Virus record (IMG/VR): IMGVR_UViG_3300021387_000072
Location: 1 to 64,000 of that record
DNA from: a virus
Lineage: Duplodnaviria; Caudoviricetes
DNA length: 64,000 nt
Direction: 5' to 3' (one strand)
The notes under the pieces: generated by a model
Told to the model about the DNA's origin: nothing
The model's input: the letters and a program-made list of their open reading frames with translations, nothing else
The model's database searches: none
Made by a program: the position numbers and the translations under genes
Part shown: positions 3,701-62,372 of the stretch, one piece after another
How the letters are laid out: the number at the start of each line of letters is the position of its first letter
Numbering within the stretch: position 1 is the first letter of the stretch

Positions 3701-6576
3701 TCTTCTTCAACAAGACCGCCAGAATCATTAGATGATTTTGCATATTCAATATACTCACTCGAAAGAACCATATGATTAAACACGATAAGATTATTATCTT
3801 TCATATATTCAATTGCTTCACTAAGTGAGTGTACGGTTTGAGATATAACCTCTGATTGAAGAACTGTTGCATCATCCCATCCATCAAGCGCTTGTATTAT
3901 AATTTTTTTATTATCACTAGTTTCTACTCTGTCTGATGTAGTACAATCTTGAAACTTCGTATCGAGATATTCATAAAAAGATTCAGGACTTAATACGGTT
4001 CCGTCTGGAAGAATAGGTGTAGCAACTACTGTAAAAGGATGCAATTCAGTTCCTATTCCACGAGCAGATGAATAAAGCGTTGCATAACTATCGTCGTTAA
4101 AATCAGTCCATCCAGCTAATTGCATTGCTGGAGCTGGTATCTTTTGTCTTGATCCAAGATCAACACGGCTCCATTGACTAGAATATGTAATGAGTTGCTC
4201 TAAAGTATATCCATCAACAAGGCATAACGTCTGCCATGCAGGCGATGCAACTTTATTAATCCATTCATCCGAAGACGAACTGAGCCTTAAGGATATTTCA
4301 TCAGAAGTCATTTCATATGTAGTATCTTCATCTGGATTGATAGGTGTGACCGGTACATCAGAAGAAGGAATACTTTTTTTATTGGTCAATGGATTATAAC
4401 ACCAAAGCCAATGATACATTGGGAAAGATACCTTTGTTTTTGAGTTTACAAGATTGCCACCTTGTCCACTTGGTATAACGACAGTAGATGGTGGATTGTC
4501 AGTGAAAACTGTTACATGCGGAACAGTAGCTATAGTTGTAGCATTCTCAAGAGATTCAATAGCAGCTTCATCCAACGCTTCGTTTGAACCGATGTAGCCA
4601 GAAAGACTATTCGACTGGAAGAGATAGAACTCATCGTTCTCGATATCAATAGTCTTCATTGCTTCTTCGTAACTTACCCATAACTGTATAGCTTTCGGAT
4701 TAACCTGATCATCGAATACAGCTTTTAGATAATACTTATCCCAAGATACCGGCTTCTTATCTGTGGCTTTATGAAAGATATACAACACGGAACAGCCAGC
4801 GTTTGTTGGATCACCATCGTTATTCAGACTGTATGTAGTAACCCATTTAAAATATGAATCATTTGTAACATCGTAGTCTGTTCTGTAGATAACACCACGA
4901 GGATATTGATACTGTATAGCAGTTGCTTTATCAGTGTTAATGCCATCATCTGGATGTGTGATCTCTCCATAATCAAGGAACAGCGTAAGATAATCACTGA
5001 TGGTCCAGTCAGCACGTTTGATCTTCAGTTTACAGAATGGAACTGTGCCGATAAGATCACTGAGCTTGGATCTTCCTTCACTCATTTCAGCAGAAGCTTT
5101 CTTTACTTTTTCATAGTACTGCTTTGCATTCCGCTGAAATGAAGCTACCTTCTGAAGCATATCATTATCGAACAAGCCGACACTGATATAGTAATCGAAG
5201 TCCATTATGTAGCTGAACATATTCTCAACCTCATAATCTACTTCAACTGTCGCATTATCCACAGTAAGATAACTACCATCAGCCGATAGCGGAAGCATTG
5301 CTGTGACTTCCGCTAATCGGCTGTCAATAGTAGCAATAACATCTTCGTCTTCATACTTGGCACGTTCTGCTATGAGATTTTTATATTCCCTATACAGATC
5401 AATATAGCTTTTGCTCTCATCATTATCTCTGTAATTCATATCAAAGAGAAGAGTACCGGACATACCTTGCTTTACAAAGAATGCTACTGATGGTTCTTCT
5501 ATATGTTCAGTATTGTATCCATTATCGCCTTCGATTTCGTATCCTTCACCTTTCTCCACCCAAACATAGCTCATGGATGCCGGATCCAGGAGAGAGTAAA
5601 TCATCTTCCTTCCAGCTGCTATATTCTCTGTTGGTGTGAAGACAAAATAAACCATTATGCCGTCCAAATCTTCTACCCTGAAGTAATACTGCTCCCCAGC
5701 GACAAGCTCGAAATTGACTTTAAAAGTGTACTCAGTATGTACACTTTCAGAGATGTCACAGTAACCCAGTGTCTTGTCACCGAACGACCCATAAGCATAT
5801 AACTTTGTTCTGATGTTCTCAGTATTCTGTGTACGGGTTATGGCTTTTACATTGGTTCCGTAATAAAGTTCGATAGTTCCATTCTCTTTGGCATAGTCTG
5901 GTATCTCACCTTCCTTAACGCCGTAGAATGGATTGATCGGATATATATCAACAACATGTCTGTTGGTTCTGAAGACAGGCTTTGCATCAAACAGTTCACA
6001 CATCATGGTGATAAGCTTAAAGCATCCCGTCTTGGAGGATGCTTTAAGCGTTCTGTATTTTTTTGAACCATCTTTATCCGCAAAAGGATATACATAGCCT
6101 CGCTTCCATTCAGTACCTTCAAGGATAGTATCAAGAAGCTGTTCACATGTACCGATGTTATTACCATCATTATCTGAAAACTCAAGGCCGAGGTTCTTAT
6201 TCTTAAGAAGCTGAGAAGCATTGCCAGCTATTACTGATATTGTTTTTGTATATGCGTTGTGAGATATCTTTGGCTCCGAGATAAGGAACCAGTCGATGGC
6301 ATCTTCCTTATTATCATATTCAGTATCATCTTCAATGCTTCTAATAAGGAAGTCAGCCTTAAGATAACTCACGATTATATTTTCTTTAGTGCCTTCATCG
6401 TACTGTACGATAGTCGGCAAGTCAAAAGACAATTCTCTCCAGCCGTTACGTTCAGTTGCAATAAAAACATTAGTGGCCTGACCGGGAATGTCTACATAAT
6501 TATCATAGATTGGACATAGCTTGTTACCGGAATAATCATATATGTCCAAATGTAATACTCGTTTTTTATCTGCCAT
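706..6576 (-). CDS. Tail tip / Tal-like baseplate hub protein with long extension (1956 aa)
   Basis: Follows Dit; prophage-tail-like N-terminus ('ELYYGTNVKAITRTQNTENIRTKLYAYG'); late coiled coil ('IRQNAESISLEA'). Confidence 0.75.
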   Translation of the reverse strand: MADKKRVLHLDIYDYSGNKLCPIYDNYVDIPGQATNVFIATERNGWRELSFDLPTIVQYDEGTKENIIVSYLKADFLIRSIEDDTEYDNKEDAIDWFLISEPKISHNAYTKTISVIAGNASQLLKNKNLGLEFSDNDGNNIGTCEQLLDTILEGTEWKRGYVYPFADKDGSKKYRTLKASSKTGCFKLITMMCELFDAKPVFRTNRHVVDIYPINPFYGVKEGEIPDYAKENGTIELYYGTNVKAITRTQNTENIRTKLYAYGSFGDKTLGYCDISESVHTEYTFKVNFELVAGEQYYFRVEDLDGIMVYFVFTPTENIAAGRKMIYSLLDPASMSYVWVEKGEGYEIEGDNGYNTEHIEEPSVAFFVKQGMSGTLLFDMNYRDNDESKSYIDLYREYKNLIAERAKYEDEDVIATIDSRLAEVTAMLPLSADGSYLTVDNATVEVDYEVENMFSYIMDFDYYISVGLFDNDMLQKVASFQRNAKQYYEKVKKASAEMSEGRSKLSDLIGTVPFCKLKIKRADWTISDYLTLFLDYGEITHPDDGINTDKATAIQYQYPRGVIYRTDYDVTNDSYFKWVTTYSLNNDGDPTNAGCSVLYIFHKATDKKPVSWDKYYLKAVFDDQVNPKAIQLWVSYEEAMKTIDIENDEFYLFQSNSLSGYIGSNEALDEAAIESLENATTIATVPHVTVFTDNPPSTVVIPSGQGGNLVNSKTKVSFPMYHWLWCYNPLTNKKSIPSSDVPVTPINPDEDTTYEMTSDEISLRLSSSSDEWINKVASPAWQTLCLVDGYTLEQLITYSSQWSRVDLGSRQKIPAPAMQLAGWTDFNDDSYATLYSSARGIGTELHPFTVVATPILPDGTVLSPESFYEYLDTKFQDCTTSDRVETSDNKKIIIQALDGWDDATVLQSEVISQTVHSLSEAIEYMKDNNLIVFNHMVLSSEYIEYAKSSNDSGGLVEEEAPTYSGSDLIQEDMPSSDAAEYLETDGYGFYYYNYVYDTDNIWKFVLYSDEKPTVKIPNAYWYNWRANTLCKYNSSNNQWVDCDEESDKNGASLFGTVYHICKQRDMYWQGTYLKRTFSLKKFAKAINNDEDTNLVIPAGNYYFDDGYDGFCLFTTDVNLESQYDDSITYNSQKRWITVKHKATETAIKTKSYSFDNVYYHPSNIITQKLSAEGWIDFATGEASDTWKNDEGVSPDGNTYFKCVYNRTYFPVVPGCIYDITSSIGYSMCIENLVVHFYNAKQQWISCGRIQPKEVNQKTLSQFVTPGNCYYVRIAELGRYQWRILESGIDGLVISVYGTLNNRYKYDYKNTIVVEDMTYLRLPINEYPEDNQYIGLLENMQNFLDLSDDTYITKYNAKNKAQKAADDYERQMTSALNHMHREGWWQDASYVDGDESRLYTDALDNLREIAKPEVTYNIEFLDLYSSNMGSKDFGASEITSDIDFPDLNITSAIHLVDDDLNLNCWAYVDKIKKCYDKPWLTTITVNTKLSTLEQHSFTDVMTHIADVASEVKGKMSRYDNATNKLLANFNVNYLQGLISETDQTLKSSFKKIETIDGKLLTYETMIRQNAESISLEAARSYEEERSMRALLNITAEEIKSRVENVEGITEKYTEVKQTAEGIYGTYVDENNEQHTISTAAEFIQVFEDPNTSSKTKHMLSETLYGSLNVITDGNDYSLVSQDKNRILALVSDPNIDKPFKTQKIDINKDGIDITSNGYLNISSEGKFIVNTPYFDVDENGRMTTTESYINNAVMYNCYIWGQLYNEGYPVLSTKSVVYQSDQPQNPTTGMIWLKPTGSGGGGEEPVVDPTGIGTRVSYTKFFHYEYRQTLEVNDSLDSLTGAGASVTLVPGQTRAKYTITISEPGFILLNSPAGTSDPGGVIRCTIAGAIYGDSNLIDDIGVYNNYSFSFTSTQWLATDATLNVLINCQKSGNLNQTYINRQNTFRITVTAEVVADT

Positions 6577-6589
6577 AATGTTTCCACCT

Positions 6590-7666
6590 TTACATAAACG
6601 TAGGCTTATAAATAAACTTCACCCATTTGATATCACTGTCCGGTGTAGTGATGATGGACATCTCATTCATTTTGACTATGTTTGTAAGAGCATAGTTTGT
6701 ATATGTGCATGGAGTCTCAAGCCTTGCTCTGTTGTCGTCAATAATCTCTACGATCTTTACCCACTTGTCTTCGATGTAGGCGTAATGCCCAAGCATGAAG
6801 TCACTGAACAGATGGAAGGAATAGATTTCATCAGAGCCAGCTCTTGTATCTACATATACATCGCGGTGAATAGGGAAGGAAGGTTCCAGCTTTATGAAGC
6901 CATGATCATGATATGTGAAGGCCAGCTTACTTGTTGTGCCGTCTGTAAGAACAGTCTTGAAGTTAATACTGTCACACATCACATACTTATCCTTCATATC
7001 TTCAGTTGTTGTGTCGAACACAACGAGCTTCATCTCTGTATTGTTTGTGTTGTTCTTTATCGTTACGCCATAACCTGCCTTACCGGCTATGGCTACAGCT
7101 ACATGTGCCGCACTGGAACCGCCGTTATACAGAAGGAAATTCTTTATATATTCCCCAGCCTGATTCAGCGTGTGTTCTTTTGTCGGTGTATATTCTTCTT
7201 CAAGAAGACCACTGTTACCGGCAAGATAATCATCGTAGAGACCATCGTATGTAAGATAGTCTTTATCACATCTGCCGAATGGATAATATGCTTTAAGATG
7301 AATGGTGATAAAACCATTCTGTTTGTTTACGATATTTGTTGTATCGATGTTTACAACCGTGGCAATATAGTAAAGCCAGTTGCGGTTATTAAATATAAGT
7401 TTACCTGTGCGGCCTGGGTAAAAGAAAGATTCTACACGGGAAAGTATACCAGCAATAATCTCAGACTCTTCATATAAACATCTCAGATGAAATTCTTTTG
7501 GTTGTATGGTGGTTCCATAATAGTAGCCGCCATGATGACCTTCGTAAGACTGTTCATTAGTCTGATAATTACTGTGACCATATACCCATGTTTCATTGTT
7601 CTGCGGAACATACTCAAGACCGAAGTCTGTAATCTCTGCTCCGCAGAAACTAAAGCCACCTTGCAT
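6590..7666 (-). CDS. Distal tail protein (Dit)
   Basis: Directly after TMP; 'GFSFCG..ITDFGL', 'GKLIFN', 'LKAYYPFG' pattern. Confidence 0.75.
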   Translation of the reverse strand: MQGGFSFCGAEITDFGLEYVPQNNETWVYGHSNYQTNEQSYEGHHGGYYYGTTIQPKEFHLRCLYEESEIIAGILSRVESFFYPGRTGKLIFNNRNWLYYIATVVNIDTTNIVNKQNGFITIHLKAYYPFGRCDKDYLTYDGLYDDYLAGNSGLLEEEYTPTKEHTLNQAGEYIKNFLLYNGGSSAAHVAVAIAGKAGYGVTIKNNTNNTEMKLVVFDTTTEDMKDKYVMCDSINFKTVLTDGTTSKLAFTYHDHGFIKLEPSFPIHRDVYVDTRAGSDEIYSFHLFSDFMLGHYAYIEDKWVKIVEIIDDNRARLETPCTYTNYALTNIVKMNEMSIITTPDSDIKWVKFIYKPTFM

Positions 7667-7684
7667 AGAATCACCTCGTTTAAT

Positions 7685-7732
7685 AAAAATAAAAGGAGTT
7701 CAGAGCCGCCGCACCAACGAGCGGCTCTGAAC
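7685..7732 (-). terminator. Terminator-like hairpin after TMP
   Basis: GTTCAGAGCCGC/GCGGCTCTGAAC stem followed by a T-rich run on the minus strand. Confidence 0.65.
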
Positions 7733-7740
7733 GACCGTTA

Positions 7741-10700
7741 TTAAAATCCGAATACAGGAACACCAAGTCCCTGTCTTGTAAGCTCTTTAACAAACTGTTC
7801 ACCAACATGACGGGCAACAGCTTCATAATCTGCTTCATCTTCAAATTTAGCTTCGTTAAGAGTAATGATAACGTCACCGATAGTTGAAGTAGTAGAGTTC
7901 TTAAAGTCAGACGGAGAGAAGTCAGAAAGCATGGAAGGCACCCGAACAAAATCAGAGTACGTATGCATGGCTTCAATAATGTTATCAAACATATTGCTGT
8001 GATACATCTGTTCAGCCGTATCAACGAGTTCTTCAAATGCAGCAGTCTGTTGCGCATTGAGAACACGTTCTTTCTCGTGAACATACAGAAGACCTTCCTG
8101 ATCACCAGTATATGTACCAGTGTCAGCTTTAACAGCTGTCTTAAGTATTCTGTTTTTAACTTCATTCATAACTATGTTTGCCACATTTGATGTCGGGGTT
8201 ATAGTTGGTGTTTTGTTCTTATTTCCATACACCAAATCTGTGATATCTACAACATCATCTTTTGCTTCATCAACAACAGGAGTAATGCTAGGACCGTTCT
8301 TATTATTTTTATTCTTGTTAGAACCTGAGTTGTTAGAACTTCCACCAGATCCACTTCCAGATCCAGAACCACCTTTGCCTCCGACATATTCAGTGCCATA
8401 CCAATCACCAGTATTTGGATCATCATGATACCAAGATGCATTTAAGATATTTGCATCTATCATAGCATCATACTGCTGACCCCACGTGTACAGTAATGAT
8501 TGTTGTTCAGTAGCTGATTTATTAATATAATCATCAGACTGTTTCATAAAATCAAGGAAAGATTCTTTTGTTGCAAGTATTTGATTGATCCAGTCCCAAT
8601 ACGTATCAGTCTGACCAGTCATTTGTTTCCATGTATCATTCCAAGACTGAACCATCTGTTCTTGTGCTTTTGCCAAGCTATTCTTAAATTCATCGACGTT
8701 ATTCTGAAGCCATGCGAAAAGCTGATCGTGGTTCATACCCATAATCTCAGTCATCTCAGATGTGAAGTTATTGGCATCCTCAAGGAACGTAGCAAGCTGT
8801 TCATCACCAGCAGTCACGTAATCATCATAGGCTTTTGTCTGATCATCGATTGAAGCCTTCTGCGCATCTGCCTGTTTCTCAGCAATGTCCCAGCCAATAT
8901 CTTTTTCAATATCAGAGATCTTCTTGCGCATCTCAGCAGCATCCTTGGTACGAGTGCTGTCCATTTCGATAAGCGCAAGCTGCTTCTTGAGTTCAGCAAG
9001 CTCTTCATATTTCTCAGCTTCATCTTCAGCATCTTTGCGCATCTGAAGACGTTCATCAATCAGAGACTTCTCTTCTTCAAGAGCCTGTTTCTTCTTATCT
9101 ATATCTTTCTTTACAAGCTCCCATTCCTTCGTATATCTATCACGTATAGCTTGAAGAATGGTATCCTGCATAGATACTGTACCAGCCAGCATATCTCTCT
9201 GTTTCTGAATACGATTCTGAATTTCCTGTGCAAGCATATCTTCAAGAGTAATCCTTGTCTGCCTGATGGCTTCCTGATTCTCTTCAAGCTTCTTCTGGTT
9301 TTCTTCAATCGTATTGTTGAGTTCAGACATCTCTTCTTCCGCAGCAAGGAGTGCATCACGAAGATCGTACCAGTCATCTGAACCAGACTTTGTAGCCGCC
9401 ATCTGATCTTTAATCTTTTGTATGTTTGTTTCAAGAACAGGCTGATATGCTTGTTCAAGTTTAATCTCTTCTTCAAGCATCTTCCCGTAGTTGGAAAGTT
9501 CACCTTTGTTCTGATATTTTGTTTCTTCGTACTGAACCATCTTAATCTGATGCTCATACAAACTCTTACCGTGTTTGATACGCTTAAGAAGTTTCTGTGC
9601 GTCAGTTTCGGAGTTACCTCCTCCACCACCGCCACCAGATGCTTTTCTGCCAGTACCGCCACCAGCAAAACCTGTCTTTGAAGTATTAAGTTTTGCTGTA
9701 AGCTTTCCGTTTACTTCGCTTATATCCCAGTATGCTTCAACGCCAGCAGCCTGCATCATTTGAATCATAGCAGCAACGTCTTCGTTAATGAAAGCTCCGA
9801 GTTGAGAAAGAACCTCTTCAGAACTCATAGTAACTGTGCCACCAGAAACATAGACTTCAGGCCCGATTATTTCAATAGCACCTTGAGCATTAACTGCATC
9901 TTGAATGTCACTAGTAAATGTATCAATGTAATCGTTGATCATATCGAGATCGCCTTCTTCGGCTCTCTGTAAAGCTTCTTCGATTACATCTGCCTTGCTC
10001 TTATCCGTTAAATCTTTTTTATCGAAACCAGTCATTTCGGAAATCTTATCAAGAACATCGTTGTTCCGATTTCCTTTGCGATACTGTGATCTCCAATACT
10101 GATTATCATTTGCCTGCGCCATTGTCTTGTTCATGTTGGACATGAAGCTAGTTACATCTTTTGCTCTGCCTTTCAACGTATTGAAATTAGAAGCAACTTC
10201 TTCAGCATTGTCTGCATACCTATGAACATCTGAACTATGTTTTTTATCAAAGCCATTATTTACTTTAGACATGACATCAGCAAATTCTTCACCAGTTGTA
10301 GTACCATCCTTGAAGGCAGAGATTAAATCTTCCATACCTTCAACTCCGGTAGCTTGAAGCTCACTATCAACATCAAAGCCTTGAGCAAGCATGTTTTGAT
10401 ATACGCTTCTTGCACTGTTGAGATCAAGTGATGACGCATCGCCAGTCCAATCTGCTCCACCAAAAAGCTTAGACATCAAAGATTCGCCGTACTCAGTTGT
10501 ACGTCCGCTAATACCGTACTGTTTTCCACGGAGATATTCATCGTACATTGGATCTGTAATAATGCCACTGTTGCGTGCTTCAGTAAAAGCTACATATTCG
10601 GAATCACTGATAATATTATTGAACTGTTCATCTGTATACTGATTATCCTCAAGCCAGCCAGTAACATCATCTTTATTATTGAGATCAATACCGCTCTTAG

Positions 10701-55114: not shown

Positions 55115-55447
55115 AATATGTCCTTTCTGTGTTTTTGTTATTGGTATTGTAATGAAGTGGGGAAGTGGAGTCAAGGAGTTGTAAAGGATTCAGATGAAGG
55201 AATGAGTTGGAAACGGAAAATGAGTTGGAAAAGATCAGTTACTTGCATCCGTTTGGGTGCCGAAACTTTCGAACGGTAATCCCCACCCCTCCGCTCGAAA
55301 GTCATCAGTGCAAGACGTTGTGCTGATGGTTGACGGTGCGGCTGAATCCGCACGTAGCATAAGGCTGGCTGGTTGCTAAAAACCAGCAAAATAAAATATC
55401 CGCAGACACTAAACCACACTGCGGATAATGGAAGGAGGTTCATCTAT

Positions 55448-55837
55448 ATGATGAACTATAATATTTATTCCTATCAGTGGGAGATTATACACTCCCACGA
55501 CGAATTCTGCAACTACACTGAGTTTTCCAAACTCAGTGAGAGCGAGCAGAATGAAATTCTTCATACTCTGATCTCCTATGATCAGGGTATGAGAAGGATT
55601 GATATGGAATTTCGGGATGTTCAGTCCCGGAATTCAATCCTCCTCGCTAAAGGCGAGGACATGGACATCGTTGTCGACTCCATGTGGGCGACGATGCAGG
55701 CCATGGACCGTGACCGTGGCAGGCTTCATAGTAAAGCCTGCGCGGTCCTGCATAAATATCCACGGGTTTTCCCGGGGACTTGGCCCAGGGAAAGGATTAC
55801 CGCCTGGATTAGAACCATTCAGGAGGTGACTGACTAA
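55448..55837 (+). CDS. Hypothetical protein, first gene of plus-strand cassette
   Basis: SD AGGAGG before ATG 55448. Confidence 0.6.
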   Translation: MMNYNIYSYQWEIIHSHDEFCNYTEFSKLSESEQNEILHTLISYDQGMRRIDMEFRDVQSRNSILLAKGEDMDIVVDSMWATMQAMDRDRGRLHSKACAVLHKYPRVFPGTWPRERITAWIRTIQEVTD

Positions 55838-55933
55838 CGTTGATGGATGGACATACAGTCAATAAAGACTGTCTGTCCATTAAAACCCCTACTGTCGTGA
55901 GACAGGAGCTGGTCCAAAGGCCAGGTAAAAGTC
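55832..55933 (+). ncRNA. Twister ribozyme, circularly permuted (P5 type); predicted cut 55881/55882
   Basis: GTT-GA-TGG-P1(ATGGACA/TGTCCAT)-TAA-AAC-C-CC-P3(CTGTC GTGA GACAG)-CTGG-T-CCA-AA-GG-CCAG; P2, T1 and T2 all pair. Confidence 0.8.
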
Positions 55934-56079
55934 GTGTTTGGAGAATTCGCGTGCTTGCCTGCGCGTAGAGTTAGGCAATGGGATCACAACCAATAGTGTA
56001 AAGCTGTAACTCAGCAATATAAATGTCCCGGAGTGGTACAAGCACTCCGGGGACAAATGCGGTGAAAGGAGAGAATGCC

Positions 56080-56241
56080 GTGGATCACCGCTTCACTGTG
56101 GCTGCTGAGATGATCCTTTGGTTCGTCCGCCAGACGAAAAAGGATTTGATCATCTTTGCAGCAAGAGTTGCTTCTGGCAAATATGAACTGGTTTGGTCAA
56201 GCGATTTGCTTGAGTTCATGTTGATGCCAAAACACAACTAA
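56080..56241 (+). CDS. Small hypothetical protein
   Basis: SD AAAGGAG, GTG start. Confidence 0.45.
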   Translation: MDHRFTVAAEMILWFVRQTKKDLIIFAARVASGKYELVWSSDLLEFMLMPKHN

Positions 56242-56304
56242 CTCTTTCTGAGAGATTCCACTCTCTCAGATCACATCCTATAGCAGAGAGAGGAATCTGT
56301 CAAC

Positions 56305-56373
56305 ACGTCCTTGGGCATGACGTTAAACTGCCCTTTGATTATATAAAGACCTGGGCATGTCTCTAAACTGTCT
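56305..56373 (+). ncRNA. Two tandem H-type pseudoknots in the RNAP leader
   Basis: ACGTC-CTT-GGGCA-T-GACGT-TAAAC-TGCCC and AGAC-CT-GGGCA-T-GTCT-CTAAAC-TGTCT. Confidence 0.7.
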
Positions 56374-56398
56374 AATAAAGATAAAGGAGTGTGCAGAC

Positions 56399-59104
56399 GT
56401 GTACATTCTTAAACTTGATGCCCGTCAAAAGTTCGGCTTCGCTGCCGGTGCTGCTGATCCGTTTGAATCTGTTGGAAACGAGTTTCACAATCCCGTTGTT
56501 GTGAAGCTCGGGTCCAATAAGGTTGAGAGGCAGGATCGTATTCCTCTGCCTCGGTATGGGATTCTCCGCGTCAATTTCAGACGCATCGCTATCCCCGACG
56601 AACTCGACAAGGGCTTCAACCCTGATCTCGACCTCTGTCAGGCAGAGGCCGAAGCCCGTGCTCAGCTTTGGCGTGAGCAGGGGTACATCGACCTCTTTGG
56701 TCGCCATTACGTCTTGCTCGATCAGAGCAGCAATGGCGTAAAGGTGGCAGAGGCTGAATTTATCCTTGATGGCTACCGCGATGCCTACCTTGATTGGTGG
56801 CACTGCGGGATGAAGCTTCTGGGTCTCGATCTCCATACTCAGGTGGAGAAAGACGCCAGGGCTACAACTACATGTCTTCCACATTGTTATTACTTTGGGG
56901 AAGATGGATCCATTGAGTATCTTCAGGGCCTGATTCCCGAAATGATCATCGACGACATGGTTATAATGCCGAAAGTGGTCACGGGAAACCACCAGGCACT
57001 TGAAGGAAAAACACGTCTGTTCAACATGACAGACAAACCTGTAGAAGGTGTAGAGCCTGGTCAGGTTGGTATTTCATCTGAAGCATGGGAAGAAACAGAC
57101 TCTGATGGTGGCATCTGGTACGTACTAGATGACACCAAAGAGGATGAGAACTCCCGTAAAATCAAGACCATGGCAAAACAAGGCAAATTCATCTCCTACA
57201 CAATCAACGCCGCTGGCGAAAAAGGTTGTGTAAATATTATCCTTAAATCCACTTTAATTTCCTTCCTTGAAGAGGAAATTAAAGATGGATATATTAAGGA
57301 ATATAAGAGAGATGAAGCCGGGAATCTCATCGCCGCATATACAGAGAACGCGTGGCATGAGAAGGTCAACTTTCTTGGAAAACCACTGTTCGGGACGCCT
57401 GATACCTTTAAGTGGTTCAAGTCTCAGGACTTCAAAATCCCTGAGGGCTGGAGCCAGTTCATCGAAGGATTTAACTCTTATGGACACACCTTTGACGTGT
57501 CCGTAGTTCCACATGTCGTTTGGCGGCATATGCCGTACCAGATGACACTGGGACTCATCCAGTCTAAAGAAGATGCGGATTGGATGATTAATCGTGAAGT
57601 GTCAAATCTTAATTCATACAAAATCCCCGAGGAAGCTGCAAAGCTCCTGCCTAAGTGGATGAGGGAAGCTTTGAAAGTTTACCCCGAACTCTGGCAGGAC
57701 AAATTCTTCCGCTTTTGCGCTCAGGCTGCTTATACAAAGAAGCGTTGGGCCGCAATGGCCGGGAAGCTTGACCGTATGGGAAAATACTTCTTCCTTGCTC
57801 CTGATACTGTCGGTATCTTTAGGGCATGGTGTGGTGACAATCGTCCCTACATCCAGGCTGGTAATATCATTCAGCCTGGTTGTGAGGAAGGAAAGCGAGT
57901 CGTTATGGCTCGCAATCCCTTCCCCGGGATCAATTTCTGTCTCAGAACCCGGCAGAAGATTGATGAAAAGTATTATGGGTTCTACACCTCTAACACTGTT
58001 TATGTTTCCATGCTGGACGATAGCATGGTACGGATGCAGGCCGACTTCGATGGTGATAAGGTGTTCATCATCGAAGACGAAGAGGTATATGCCATGGCTG
58101 AGAAAGCCCTGAAGGCTACTGGATATCTCACCGTGAGGTGGGCCAAGCCTGATGGACATAAGCAGCCTTACTCTGATGAGGTTTTCTGGAATCATGTTCT
58201 TGAAGCCAATACGTCGGAGGTTGGCATAATCTGCTCGGGTATAGTCAAAGTTCGTGCTGTGGACGCACAGCAGAACAAGGACTGGGAAACCAGTACCGCC
58301 TATGATCTTGAGAAAAACGCCATAGGCGAAGCAGCGTGCACCTTGGACATCGACGCTGCCAAAGGTACTGGTGCGAAGGTCCAGGCATGGTACGCCATTG
58401 CAGAAGGCAAAGCATATAAATATGCCAAGCGCCCTCTCCACATGGCGTATCAGAAGAGTTCTCCTGCTCCTAATACTGACGAAGCTGTCGAGAAGAAATG
58501 TAGGGAGTTTGAGAAATCAAACTACTACGGACATCATCTTCTCGATTATGCCACACAGATGATTGGTGTCCTTACGGATGAAACGCTGTATGTGGACGCA
58601 CATAGCAGCGAAGAATTCAGGTATCTCAAGCTGACCAGCGATCCCAAGCATACAAAAGGGAAAGCTGGTCTGGCTGACCTCCTGAGTGAGGCCATCAAGG
58701 AGTTCCGTACCGAGTACGCACGTCTGTGCGCAGCCACGGACAACTCCATGGCTACGAGCGAATTCACGAAGAGGTATTATGAAAACCTCAGAGTGAAGAT
58801 CCTCGCAAGAGGGTTCAACGCTGGCATGACACAGGAAGAAACTGTCGATGCCCTTATCAAGACCGTTTATAACGGCTATAAGGACATCGATATTGCTGCT
58901 CACGAGAAGGAGTTCCGCATTCTGTGGACTTGCTTCGGTGAGGAGCTGGTAGCAAATCTCAAGGCTAATCAGGGAATCAAGAATGAAGATATTGACAACC
59001 CTGAAGATGCCTATTGTCCTGATGAATCTGAAGAGGACTTCGCTGTTCTCGACGAAGACATGTGCTTCGCCGATGAAGGCGATGGCTTCTTCATGGACGA
59101 GTGA
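56399..59104 (+). CDS. Single-subunit two-barrel RNA polymerase (YonO / RNAi-RdRP-like)
   Basis: SDGG, GEKG, ARNP (57911) and ADFDGD (58043-58057) in order; about 900 aa; GTG start after AAGGAG. Confidence 0.85.
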   Translation: MYILKLDARQKFGFAAGAADPFESVGNEFHNPVVVKLGSNKVERQDRIPLPRYGILRVNFRRIAIPDELDKGFNPDLDLCQAEAEARAQLWREQGYIDLFGRHYVLLDQSSNGVKVAEAEFILDGYRDAYLDWWHCGMKLLGLDLHTQVEKDARATTTCLPHCYYFGEDGSIEYLQGLIPEMIIDDMVIMPKVVTGNHQALEGKTRLFNMTDKPVEGVEPGQVGISSEAWEETDSDGGIWYVLDDTKEDENSRKIKTMAKQGKFISYTINAAGEKGCVNIILKSTLISFLEEEIKDGYIKEYKRDEAGNLIAAYTENAWHEKVNFLGKPLFGTPDTFKWFKSQDFKIPEGWSQFIEGFNSYGHTFDVSVVPHVVWRHMPYQMTLGLIQSKEDADWMINREVSNLNSYKIPEEAAKLLPKWMREALKVYPELWQDKFFRFCAQAAYTKKRWAAMAGKLDRMGKYFFLAPDTVGIFRAWCGDNRPYIQAGNIIQPGCEEGKRVVMARNPFPGINFCLRTRQKIDEKYYGFYTSNTVYVSMLDDSMVRMQADFDGDKVFIIEDEEVYAMAEKALKATGYLTVRWAKPDGHKQPYSDEVFWNHVLEANTSEVGIICSGIVKVRAVDAQQNKDWETSTAYDLEKNAIGEAACTLDIDAAKGTGAKVQAWYAIAEGKAYKYAKRPLHMAYQKSSPAPNTDEAVEKKCREFEKSNYYGHHLLDYATQMIGVLTDETLYVDAHSSEEFRYLKLTSDPKHTKGKAGLADLLSEAIKEFRTEYARLCAATDNSMATSEFTKRYYENLRVKILARGFNAGMTQEETVDALIKTVYNGYKDIDIAAHEKEFRILWTCFGEELVANLKANQGIKNEDIDNPEDAYCPDESEEDFAVLDEDMCFADEGDGFFMDE

Positions 59105-59157
59105 CTTTGAAGAGGGAGTGCTGGACTCTACATCCAGCCTCCCTCTTCTCGTTCCCC

Positions 59158-59225
59158 TCCCGCCTGATGAGGGTTAGTGCCAAGCTGGTGACTTGGCGAA
59201 ATGCGAAAGCATAGCGGGAAACCAG
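59158..59225 (+). ncRNA. Type I hammerhead ribozyme variant; predicted cut after 59213
   Basis: TCCCGC-CTGATGA-[8-nt insert, GCCAAG/CTTGGC]-GAAA-TGC GAAA GCA-TA-GCGGGA; loop II CTGGT can pair with downstream ACCAG. Confidence 0.7.
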
Positions 59226-59332
59226 AAGCTTCATCCCGTACAGAGAACTTTTTATGTTCGTCCGAGTTGGCTGATGACGATCAGTGTGAGTGCAACTCTT
59301 ACAACGGGCAAATATATGGAAGGAGGTTGACC

Positions 59333-60226
59333 ATGATGGCAACCTTTAAGAAGTTTTCTGTTTCTCTTGTTAACAGCGAAGGCAAAGAAGTTTATTTCTC
59401 CTTTGCTACGCAGGCCGAAGCAATTCAGTTTTGCCAGGCCGTCCGCTCTGGTTCTAATCAGGTAATTAAGACCTGGAAGTGGAACCAGGATGCCGGCAAA
59501 GCCGAGCTGGTTGATCTGGACAACCAGCCGGATCTCGCCGTCAAGGTGCTGTGGCAGGCACCTGATGGGAGTAATGGCGACCGCGAAATGCCCACCATTG
59601 GTGAGGCAGAAGACGCGGTTCGCCGCGCAATCGGCAAAGGCTTCAAAGCCTACTATACAGTAGGCGGCAAGGCATTTATGCCTGCAGATGTAAAGCCTGT
59701 AAAGCCTACTCCCGCTGCCTTTCCTGCTCCCGTGGAGCAGAAAGCAGCAACCGCTCCCGCTGCTCCCAAGCAGCCCATGGAGGTCCACATCTGGACCGAC
59801 GGAAGCTGCAAAGGTAATGGCAAAGCAGAAAACCGCGGTGGCTGGGCCGCGGTTCTGGTGTGTGGCGAACACCAGAAAGAGATAAGCGGTGGTGTCGCAA
59901 ACACCACCAACAACAGGATGGAACTTCAGGCTGTAGTTGAAGGGCTGAAAGCTCTGAAATTCAAAGCCGAGGTTACCATCCATTCAGATTCGGCCTACTT
60001 CTCTAACGCCATCGAAAAGGGATGGCTTAAGAAGTGGCGCTCGGCAGGCTGGATTAATGCCCAGAGAAAGCCTGTTGAAAACCGTGACCTCTGGGAGGAG
60101 TTCTGTGCACTCTCCATAGAAAAGTGCACACACCTCCACGTTGAAAAGGTTGCCGGTCATGCCGGTAACCCCCTCAACGAAAGGTGCGACACGCTTGCTG
60201 TAGCAGCAGCAAGCGCTGTCGAATAA
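59333..60226 (+). CDS. rnhA: Ribonuclease HI with N-terminal extension
   Basis: WTDGSC, TNNRMEL, HSDS, VAGHAG, NERCD motifs; SD GGAGG. Confidence 0.92.
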   Translation: MMATFKKFSVSLVNSEGKEVYFSFATQAEAIQFCQAVRSGSNQVIKTWKWNQDAGKAELVDLDNQPDLAVKVLWQAPDGSNGDREMPTIGEAEDAVRRAIGKGFKAYYTVGGKAFMPADVKPVKPTPAAFPAPVEQKAATAPAAPKQPMEVHIWTDGSCKGNGKAENRGGWAAVLVCGEHQKEISGGVANTTNNRMELQAVVEGLKALKFKAEVTIHSDSAYFSNAIEKGWLKKWRSAGWINAQRKPVENRDLWEEFCALSIEKCTHLHVEKVAGHAGNPLNERCDTLAVAAASAVE

Positions 60227-60289
60227 CCCATTCCCCAATGACGAAGGGGCCTTGTCAGTTTACTCTGACTTGGCCCCTTTCGTCAACCC

Positions 60290-60360
60290 GCAGAGCACAC
60301 CCTTCGGGGTGTAATGCCCCACTCATAATACGGGCTTGTGAGTGCTGGTTGCAAGGCCAG
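60290..60360 (+). ncRNA. Twister ribozyme, circularly permuted; predicted cut 60312/60313
   Basis: GCA-GA-GCA-P1(CACCC TTCG GGGTG)-TAA-TGC-C-CC-P3(ACTCATAA/TTGTGAGT)-G-CTGG-T-TGC-AA-GG-CCAG; covaries with the 55832 copy. Confidence 0.8.
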
Positions 60361-60522
60361 ACAAGTCAAATGCCGCAAGCTGGTGCGTAATCCAGCAGCA
60401 ATGTGAAAGCCATTGCCACCGCAAGGTGTACGAGACTCCCGGTAGGAGTGACAGTCAGTATCGCACCAATACAACTTAAGCCCCGGTGCTACCAACACCA
60501 GGGCCGGAAAGGGGGATAACCA

Positions 60523-60639
60523 GTGAAGTTCTATTACACTGGCTACTCCGTCATGGGCCGTCTCCATGACGGAAGCTGGATGCCCTTCGCCACAGAGGAA
60601 GAGTACCGCGAGTACTATAACTCCGAAAGCGAGGACTAA
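60523..60639 (+). CDS. 38-aa small phage protein (absent from ORF track)
   Basis: MKFYYTGYSVMGRLHDGSWMPFATEEEYREYYNSESED; SD GGGGGA; resembles small FATExEYxEY proteins recalled from Firmicute phages. Confidence 0.65.
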   Translation: MKFYYTGYSVMGRLHDGSWMPFATEEEYREYYNSESED

Positions 60640-60776
60640 TCCAAAAAGTCCGAAATGAATTCTAGCATAGGTGCTGCTGGAATGCAACCTGGGTGCAGCC
60701 GGTAATCTGCACGTAAGACTGCCTTGCTGGTGGGAGGTCAAACCAGTAATTATTATTTTATACTGGAGGTACCATT

Positions 60777-61208
60777 ATGAAGAACAATACTATGAGCACT
60801 CCTTTGGACATTTTGGCAGAAGATTTTCAGGCCGAAAACGACTGGTGGAATGAAAAGGGCTTCAGGAATCCGGAATCCATGAAGCTCGATGATCTTATTA
60901 AGTATGTAGAAACTCTTAATGAGGATCGTAGGGTTGAATACATCGAATTGTTTGATGAGCATTTTAATCTGTATTTTTGGGATCCCGATTATGGTCCCGA
61001 AGACAGTCTGGCTGATCTAATCGACAGCCCGGACGATCGGATTGTAGATGAATACGAGGAGCGTTTCCCCGTGTATCATGATGAACCCTGGGACTTCAAC
61101 AACGCTTCCGATGAAGAGCAGGACGAGTACCTCGACTGGCTCGAAAGGAGGTGCAATATCGTTACTACTCCTACGATAATTGAAGGGCTTGATGAGCTGC
61201 CCTTCTGA
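60777..61208 (+). CDS. Highly acidic hypothetical protein ending in DELPF
   Basis: SD GGAGG; D/E-rich. Confidence 0.65.
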   Translation: MKNNTMSTPLDILAEDFQAENDWWNEKGFRNPESMKLDDLIKYVETLNEDRRVEYIELFDEHFNLYFWDPDYGPEDSLADLIDSPDDRIVDEYEERFPVYHDEPWDFNNASDEEQDEYLDWLERRCNIVTTPTIIEGLDELPF

Positions 61209-61210
61209 TA

Positions 61211-61290
61211 TGCCGAAACCCGGACTGTCGTGAGACAGGCTGGGTCAACAGGGTGGTGGTTACCCCTGTTCTGATGATGGCAAACCGCTA
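61211..61290 (+). ncRNA. Type II hammerhead ribozyme with pseudoknot; predicted cut after GUC at 61246
   Basis: TGCC-GAAA-CCCGG..CTGGG-TC-AACAGGG-loop-CCCTGTT-CTGATGA-T-GGCA; loop TGGTGGTT pairs with AACCGCTA. Confidence 0.82.
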
Positions 61291-61299
61291 TTCATCAGC

Positions 61300-62245
61300 T
61301 CACCTCTATTTCCCTCCCCCAGGGAAAATCCAGGACAGCACCTGTTCGGGCGGGACATTTTCCTGGCGTGAGCCTTACTTGTTCTTATAGTATTACTTGG
61401 CGTATGGTTGGCGTTTACCCATTCTGGGCGTGTAACACCGCCGCACGGCGGCGGCTTGAACCTGTGGGTAAACTGTACCACATGCTTGGGTTAAGCAGTG
61501 AGTCGTTCACTTCAACACGCTGGCGTGAACCGCGTGTGCGTGGGGCGCACACGGCGTTCACACAGCGACTGTTCCTGAGTCTTGCTCACCTTGCGCAACT
61601 GCTCGGCCTCTCACCGCTTCTATGCGGTATCGGCCTACACAGTTGCTTATGGTGCCATGCTACAGTAACACATTCAATAGACTTGTGTTACCGGCGCAAG
61701 GCGCCTGCTTGGTGATGTGGAGAACGTCGTGAGACAGTTCGGCTCGAAAATCCCACTGGGTCACATGCAAGAGGCTAGGTCTTGCATGATGAATTAGCTC
61801 GGCGAAAGCCATTGAGCTAGTGTCAGTCGGCCTAGCCCCGACAACGTCTCGTCAACCAGACGTTAAAGTTAGGTTGACTTTTTATCCAGACGCTATCATG
61901 GGCGGCATCTGGATGAATGAAGTCCATGCGCAGAGGCTAGTCCTGTAGTTAAAATACTGACTGGTGTGTAGGCCAAGGCCCTACCGGATGGAAAGCAAAT
62001 GACCATCATTTGCCCTGTGGTTGGCAGAGCAACCCAGCCACTGCAGTCTGAAAGATGACTGTGGTCAAATTCAGTCATCCCGAAAGGGATGCATATAGTG
62101 AACTTCATCCAGCATGTCTTGCACAACATGTTGGATGATTATAGCGGATGTTCACCCCAGACTGATGAACCGCCTGCAACAGGCGTGAATTGTTGCTACC
62201 CACATGCAGTGTTTGTGCAGACACTGTATGTGGGTATTTTTTTTC
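61300..62245 (+). ncRNA. Candidate large structured noncoding RNA(s)
   Basis: No credible ORF; many nested stems, GNRA loops, a kissing-loop pair and a pseudoknot; ends at a terminator. Confidence 0.55.
62197..62244 (+). terminator. Intrinsic terminator
   Basis: TACCCACATGCAGTGT...ACACTGTATGTGGGTA-T8. Confidence 0.8.
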
Positions 62246-62372
62246 TTACTTGGCCTAAACAGCATGTGTCATCGTGACACATGTGATATCTTCACCAAAC
62301 GCGGCAAGGCCGCTACTTGGTGATGTGGAGAAGACGTTCTCCAAAAATATATAAAGACTTTGGAGGTTTATC

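Follow-up and report, generated by a model that had tools for sequence, protein, structure and literature searches.

How might a run of phage genes with no strong terminator among them be turned into separate messages? The question is raised by a gene cassette in IMG/VR virus record IMGVR_UViG_3300021387_000072, a complete 126,028-bp record with direct terminal repeats from an uncultured phage, of which the first 64 kb, referred to here as the window, were analysed. Within 5.4 kb of the window, four self-cleaving ribozyme motifs (two twisters, a type I hammerhead-like element and a type II hammerhead) bracket three gene units, two of which encode a YonO-like RNA polymerase and an RNase H. All four motifs are intergenic, lie on the plus (coding) strand and follow a stop codon at a distance of 1-63 nt (Table 1). 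An earlier note on this DNA had placed four ribozymes at these sites; Rfam searches, structural descriptors and parsing by hand bore this out, and the hand parses led to the same cut sites (55881/2, 59213/4, 60312/3 and 61246/7). The distances of 54, 64 and 3 nt from the preceding stop codons that were given in the note differ by one base from the 53, 63 and 2 nt counted here, a matter of counting convention. No further ribozymes were detected elsewhere in the 126-kb genome, either with Rfam models at E<=1 or with the twister and hammerhead descriptors.

A terminator scan revealed no strong intrinsic terminator on the plus strand from 55.3 kb up to position 62197, where a stem of 18 bp and the T run behind it likely form the 3' end of the transcription unit. 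Since no strong plus-strand terminator precedes this position, the most economical reading is that a long transcript is divided into units. From the absence of terminators we infer that the block of ~55.3-62.2 kb is read as one polycistronic RNA, and it is reasonably probable that the four ribozymes would cut this RNA co-transcriptionally into gene-length units, uncoupling the cistrons.

Twister and hammerhead folds

Both twisters are arranged in the P5-permuted order, consisting of P2 strand, GA, T2 strand, P1 hairpin, a UAA with the cut after the U, P2 strand, T1 strand, an optional P3, and P4, and in both the P4 loop carries the partners of T2 and T1. The conserved GA, the cut-site UAA, GGU and AAG are all present in the two copies. 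In twister 1, P2 is formed by GUU 55839-41 with AAC 55884-86, P1 by 55847-55880, P3 by 55892-55905 and P4 by 55909-12 with 55921-24, while the pseudoknots are T2, UGG 55844-46 with CCA 55914-16, and T1, CC 55887-88 with GG 55919-20. Its P1 comprises 13 bp with one internal mismatch, and its P3 is an insert. The P5 closing helix (55828-35 with 55930-37) overlaps the TAA stop codon of the upstream gene, as already seen in the earlier note, and the minimum free energy (MFE) fold reproduces P5, P2, P1, P3 and P4. In twister 2, P2 is formed by GCA 60290-92 with UGC 60315-17, P1 by 60298-60311, P3 by 60321-43 and P4 by 60345-48 with 60357-60; T2 pairs GCA 60295-97 with UGC 60350-52, and T1 pairs CC 60318-19 with GG 60355-56.

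The Rfam Twister-P5 model, with a gathering score of 37.6, returned 27.9 bits for twister 1 (55838-55924), only when a short stretch was searched, and 28.6 bits (E 0.01) for twister 2 (60289-60360) at a relaxed threshold. The scores fall below gathering because of the inserted P3 stems, the long P1 of copy 1 and compensatory pseudoknot changes that the model cannot score. Compared with the type-P5 consensus (RF02684), the window copies have C-G for G-C in T1, altered P2 and T2 pairs and an added P3 stem; the fold, the conserved nucleotides, the T1 and T2 pseudoknots and the genetic context are those of RF02684 twisters. A descriptor composed of the Rfam consensus plus both pseudoknots picked out these two sites alone in the 126-kb genome and had no match in 100 dinucleotide-shuffled genomes.

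Based on a P4-loop pattern taken from the window itself, the same twister design was located in other IMG/VR phage contigs, and 12 of the foreign twisters aligned with the two window copies reach Rfam's gathering score. MAFFT alignments, in which P1 was misaligned, were dropped for a three-sequence seed with model-guided realignment. The resulting covariance model (R2), which was seeded with three twisters from foreign contigs and rebuilt with 26 twisters gathered from other phage contigs, matched the whole genome only at 60290-60360 (42.5 bits, E 4e-8) and 55839-55924 (16.8 bits, E 0.07). In an alignment of 29 twisters, the window's two and 27 from other phage contigs, 95.3% of cells pair and 16 of the 18 pairs change on both sides, a result equalled by none of 500 shuffles; shifting the partners lowered pairing to 25-49%. 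The T1 and T2 pairings, which were not fitted by the model, hold in 91-93% of cells, with four of their five pairs changing on both sides. By these measures of sequence and covariation both window twisters are genuine type-P5 members, copy 1 being the more divergent.

The type II hammerhead was recognised by Rfam Hammerhead_II (RF02276) at 61211-61289 with 39.1 bits, over the gathering score of 37. It possesses a full core, with CUGAUGA at 61271-77, GAAA at 61215-18 and C61246 as H17. Stems I (61247-53 with 61264-70), II (61211-14 with 61279-82) and III (61218-45) contain 7, 4 and 6+5 bp, respectively; I and III are closed and II is open. One extra U (U61278) stands between A9 and G10.1, and the same extra U is found in the homologues from two other phage contigs, L148 and L162. 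A pseudoknot of 6 bp, one of them G-U, joins GUGGUU 61256-61 of loop I to AACCGC 61283-88 of the tail, a contact typical of type II hammerheads (PMC3088659). The hammerheads of L148 and L162 have the same design and the same stem III hairpin with other pseudoknot sequences (GCCC:GGGC in L148 and GGCU:AGCC in L162).

A 16-nt hairpin (core CUGUC-GUGA-GACAG) was observed to be identical at 55891-55906, where it constitutes P3 of twister 1, and at 61224-61239, where it forms the tip of stem III of the type II hammerhead. With its flanks 22 of 24 nt match, and a near copy lies at 61724-61737. The stem III hairpin of L148 and L162, which are unrelated phage contigs, is this same hairpin. Its presence in both ribozyme classes could be due to sequence exchange or to a shared binding site. 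The 14-nt hairpin was also tried as a marker of related phages. At least 118 stretches matched, and the 80 loci examined were mostly chance-like; none of them encodes relatives of the window proteins, and the hairpin was borne by a hammerhead only in L148 and L162.

The core of the type I hammerhead-like element is complete, with CUGAUGA 59164-70, GAAA 59198-201, the A15.1-U16.1 pair (A59201-U59212) and A59213 as H17. Stems I (59158-63 with 59214-19), II (59179-84 with 59192-97) and III (59201-04 with 59209-12) have 6, 6 and 4 bp, stem I being open. A pseudoknot of 5 bp between CUGGU 59185-89 in loop II and ACCAG 59221-25 has the layout of the canonical type I hammerhead found in phage contig L081; a GGUU:AACC pseudoknot was dropped in favour of this longer pairing. 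The two hammerhead sites were the sole matches of a hammerhead descriptor in the 126-kb genome. As proof the loose descriptor was rejected, with ~0.5 matches per shuffled genome, and only the total stem length discriminates somewhat.

Hairpins, leaders and genes of the cassette

In all three ribozyme layouts (twister P5, hammerhead I and hammerhead II) a closed hairpin, either P1 or stem III, directly precedes the cut, so that each predicted upstream product ends in a hairpin and a single unpaired nucleotide. Two junctions carry an extra long hairpin further upstream of the ribozyme. The first (10+6 bp) has a folding energy of -29.1 kcal/mol and a z-score of -7.05, and the second -33 kcal/mol and -9.53; in agreement with the earlier note, neither is followed by a U tract. 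Of the downstream products, that of the type II hammerhead starts inside a hairpin and those of both twisters with 8-10 free nucleotides, while the type I product can form a 5'-terminal hairpin of 6 bp (59214-19 with 59234-39).

The leader following twister 1, which would serve the polymerase unit as its 5' untranslated region, folds far better than shuffled sequence (z-score -5.65), and likewise the leader at 60361-60776 behind twister 2 (-3.42); neither has an Rfam match. A possible small open reading frame (ORF), 56062-56241, lies inside the first leader. Inside the second, a candidate ORF of 38 aa with a good ribosome-binding site was observed at 60523-60639. No family match was obtained for these two ORFs or for the 143-aa protein, and the 154-aa upstream protein belongs to no Pfam, PHROG or NCBIfam family.

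Table 1. Features of the cassette, with predicted cut sites
Feature	Position	Strand	Details
Upstream gene	55373-55837	+	154 aa as listed; TAA stop 55835-55837 abuts twister 1
Twister 1, type P5	55839-55924 (55828-55937 including P5 helix)	+	Predicted cut U55881/A55882
Structured leader, 432 nt	55925-56356	+	Between twister 1 and polymerase gene
YonO-like RNA polymerase gene	56357-59104	+	915 aa; TGA 59102-59104
Long hairpin 1	59109-59148	+	Between polymerase stop and type I hammerhead
Type I hammerhead-like element	59158-59225	+	Predicted cut A59213/G59214; 53 nt after TGA 59102-59104
RNase H gene	59333-60226	+	297 aa from probable start; TAA 60224-60226
Long hairpin 2	60239-60285	+	Between RNase H stop and twister 2
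Twister 2, type P5 layout	60290-60360	+	Predicted cut U60312/A60313; 63 nt after TAA 60224-60226
Third unit	60361-61208	+	416-nt structured leader, then 143-aa gene 60777-61208
Type II hammerhead	61211-61288	+	Predicted cut C61246/A61247; 2 nt after TGA 61206-61208
Intrinsic terminator	62197-62246	+	18-bp stem then T run (terminator scan); first strong one downstream

The polymerase is of the single-chain, two-barrel type and carries the metal-binding motif ADFDGD at residues 562-567. The similarity to proteins of SPbeta-group Bacillus phages spans residues 435-632 (tblastn E 2e-4); the match in phi3T falls in a gene annotated as similar to SPbeta yonO, with a pairwise BLASTP E of 2e-10 and the DxDGD motifs aligned. 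The designation RNAP in the earlier note is therefore reasonable, the phi3T match and the aligned motifs making the protein YonO-like. YonO itself, a single-chain enzyme with a relationship to the multi-subunit polymerases, reads the late genes of SPbeta as a single operon (PMC5467207). Searches of Pfam, NCBIfam and PDB sequences returned no match to the window polymerase. It is an isolated protein, with only three homologues (P0002-P0004, 37-68% identity) among 5.8 billion clustered proteins, in all of which ADFDGD is invariant. Neither the scan of viral contigs by RNase H nor blastn against GenBank phages yielded a relative.

The RNase H assignment of the earlier note was confirmed, an RNase HI domain being located in the C-terminal half of the product (Pfam RNase_H 3e-34; NCBIfam ribonuclease HI equivalog 5e-48); the N-terminal domain is without assignment. 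The longest ORF of this gene, 59201-60226, would span the hammerhead cut site. Translation probably starts at ATG 59333 behind a GGAGG ribosome-binding site, so that the type I cut would fall in the RNase H 5' leader, outside the coding region.

The structural genes of the phage occupy the minus strand to ~53 kb, and the plus-strand gene block starts at ~53.7 kb. Within the structural region, a single ORF of 6,777 aa extends over 7741-28074 on the minus strand. At the other end of the cassette, an RNA of ~1 kb (61247-62246) would run from the type II hammerhead cut to the terminator, with few ORFs and its 5' end inside the stem I hairpin.

Proposed cleavage of a polycistronic transcript

In the proposed scheme the four ribozymes would fold during transcription and cut the RNA at the four sites listed in Table 1. 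The pieces released would be the upstream early-gene RNA, a 3.3-kb YonO-like polymerase unit, a 1.1-kb RNase H unit, a 0.9-kb unit with the 143-aa gene and a ~1-kb tail RNA ending at the terminator. At every cut the upstream piece would end in a 2',3'-cyclic phosphate and the downstream piece would begin with a 5'-OH, the end chemistry which the earlier note gave and which is established for these ribozyme classes (PMC6765202). The likely effect would be that the fate and translation of neighbouring cistrons are uncoupled without a host endonuclease.

Similar arrays were identified in other phage contigs. Same-strand arrays of 2-9 ribozymes are present in nine of them (L008, L015, L027, L079, L081, L086, L092, L109 and L148), including three twisters each in L015 and L109 and mixed pairs of hammerhead and twister in L008, L081, L086, L109 and L148. 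Fifteen of the 21 ribozymes in nine other phage contigs start at -5 to +6 nt from a stop codon, and in most cases 17-40 nt separate the end of the ribozyme from a start codon that has a ribosome-binding site ahead of it. The window differs from these arrays in its longer spacers after the ribozymes and in the hairpins added at two junctions.

Two further features of the foreign arrays were observed. L027 contains nine type-P5 twisters within 5.2 kb (5084-10251, minus strand), with the T1 variants GC:GC and CC:GG in one array. In many foreign P5 twisters (L015, L027, L079, L109 and others), a segment located just 5' of the ribosome-binding site, 8-14 nt past the ribozyme, complements the start of the 3' product and covaries with the A-A-P2-T1 strand (AAACCCC:GGGGTTT, AAACGCC:GGCGTTT, AACCCGC:CGGGTT). 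A complement of at least 6 nt occurs in 10 of 27 foreign twisters, compared with 6.6% for mismatched partners and 0/27 upstream. Since this pairing excludes P2 and T1, it looks like a 5'-terminal helix formed after cleavage or an off-switch. The window's two twisters are without it.

Several observations weigh against cleavage at all four junctions into gene-length units. The type I element contains an 8-nt insert (59171-78) beside A9/G10.1, which can be parsed as 8 nt between A9 and stem II or as a lone G-C pair followed by an 8-nt bulge; type I hammerheads in other phage contigs are free of any insert. In the MFE fold of the element all three stems persist, but the insert is paired with CUGAU of the core. 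No Rfam hammerhead match, including RF00163, was obtained for 59130-59250 even at E<=10, and the 16-bp stem total was reached in 16 of 400 shuffled genomes (~4%). Twister 1 obtains weak scores from either covariance model (27.9 and 16.8 bits). Of the Rfam models which the earlier note had named as a check, Hammerhead_II thus recognised its target over the gathering score, while both twisters remained below theirs and the type I element went unmatched. In the window, unlike in the other phage arrays, 113-1090 nt separate the ribozymes from the next clear start codon downstream, and searches with the polymerase, as protein or as alignment, found no relative in the contigs scanned from IMG/VR, JGI metagenomes and GTDB genomes. 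Both twisters and the type II hammerhead are well supported as ribozymes. The insert might make the type I hammerhead slow or inactive; given its position in the cluster, the candidate is quite probably an active ribozyme.

The fate of the released RNAs bears on the first alternative, in which the ribozymes tune expression down, either by 5'-OH ends open to a host 5' exonuclease or by loss of 3' protection, and so limit polymerase and RNase H. In its exonuclease mode RNase J prefers a 5'-monophosphate, yet the 5'-OH RNA left by glmS ribozyme cleavage is broken down by RNase J1 (PMC3997798). By analogy, glmS, the one well-understood bacterial case, would run opposite to the stabilisation suggested in the earlier note. 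Down-tuning also draws support from twisters in the 3' untranslated region of reporter constructs, which influence gene expression (PMC6765202), from the unpaired nucleotides with which both window twister products begin, and from the want of the covarying 5'-end helix seen in many foreign twisters. The hairpin at each upstream 3' end, the hairpin start of the type II hammerhead product, the 6-bp hairpin that the type I product can form and the two long hairpins look protective instead. Down-tuning is accordingly considered a minor possibility.

The strongly structured leaders downstream of both window twisters suggest a second alternative. RiboJ is an engineered insulator element that supplies the cistron behind it with a fixed 5' leader. 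In the same manner each cut might fix a 5' leader and free the downstream cistron from upstream structure and ribosome traffic, stability being secondary. The ribozymes of other phage contigs, fitted between a stop codon and a ribosome-binding site, agree with such a role. The 113-1090 nt to the next clear start in the window, by which no short standard leader is defined, do not, and insulation is rather unlikely as the main function here.

A more elaborate form of the cleavage scheme would make the polymerase/RNase H junction a regulated cut, with the insert-core pairing as the off state and the pseudoknot between loop II and the 3' tail as the on state. With the long hairpins this junction would be a self-contained, host-independent counterpart of T7 RNase III processing and would set the ratio of YonO-like polymerase to downstream genes. 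Such regulation is conceivable and is put forward as a speculation.

Some or all of the motifs might, finally, be passengers or relics spread by phage recombination and devoid of a role, the type I hammerhead being especially suspect as inactive with its non-canonical insert and no Rfam match. The hairpin identical in twister 1 and the type II hammerhead suggests sequence exchange, and the function of phage ribozymes is unproven in general (PMC6765202). Relics are nevertheless improbable: the four motifs each retain all conserved core nucleotides and both pseudoknots, their position and strand obey the rule of other phages, and ribozyme structures covary across phages, which implies selection. 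Re-joining or circularisation of the ribozyme-bounded RNAs by a ligase accepting 5'-OH and 2',3'-cyclic-phosphate ends is very improbable, for although the end chemistry suits RtcB-type ligases and splicing or circles were raised as a possibility by Perreault et al., such products went undetected by the same authors (PMC3088659), and no RtcB, RNA ligase, 2H-type ligase or AAA_33-type kinase was found among the proteins encoded by the phage.

Relation to known systems

Cleavage of a long transcript into gene-length units has precedents. Perreault et al. (2011) described clustered hammerheads flanking prophage genes and proposed processing into gene-length mRNAs; native polycistronic constructs of ~2 kb were cleaved in vitro, and one cluster in E. 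coli (PMC3088659). A 2019 review extends the idea to twisters, with function unproven (PMC6765202), and twisters, hammerheads and other ribozymes are known to lie close to one another and to phage genes (PMC6765202, PMC8782182). The corresponding proposal of the earlier note stands in so far as genuine folds occupy the coding-strand gaps and no strong terminator interrupts them; as an idea it had already been published (PMC3088659; for twisters, PMC6765202). Ribozyme punctuation of phage genes has been known since 2011, and the locus is a clean new example rather than a new phenomenon.

As in the clusters of Perreault et al., several coding-strand ribozymes bracket single phage genes or short blocks, hammerheads of types I and II carry loop-to-tail pseudoknots, and the same reading, a long transcript divided into gene-length mRNAs, is suggested, here by sequence analysis. 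Unlike those clusters, the window mixes two ribozyme classes, brackets the genes for a YonO-like polymerase and an RNase H, adds a long hairpin at two junctions and has an 8-nt insert in one hammerhead. With glmS (PMC3997798, PMC6765202) the window would share self-cleavage in a bacterial mRNA, with expression decided by what becomes of the 5'-OH downstream product. The glmS ribozyme differs in being ligand-dependent, in lying in the 5' untranslated region and in destabilising its message via RNase J1; no ligand dependence is evident in the window.

The role of self-cleaving ribozymes in bacteria and phages is an open question (PMC6765202), to which the locus adds no new one. It is compact, with two ribozyme classes in three layouts, hairpin-ended upstream products and recognisable genes instead of anonymous small ORFs, and is a convenient construct for asking whether phage messages gain stability, lose it or are merely uncoupled through such cuts.

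In function the nearest analogue is phage T7, in which host RNase III cuts the polycistronic early mRNA at gene boundaries, the two sides of the phage RNA polymerase gene among them, and leaves hairpin-ended mRNAs with 5'-phosphate and 3'-OH ends. Cuts between genes around a polymerase gene would be common to both systems; the window RNA, in contrast, would cut itself, leaving 5'-OH and cyclic-phosphate ends.

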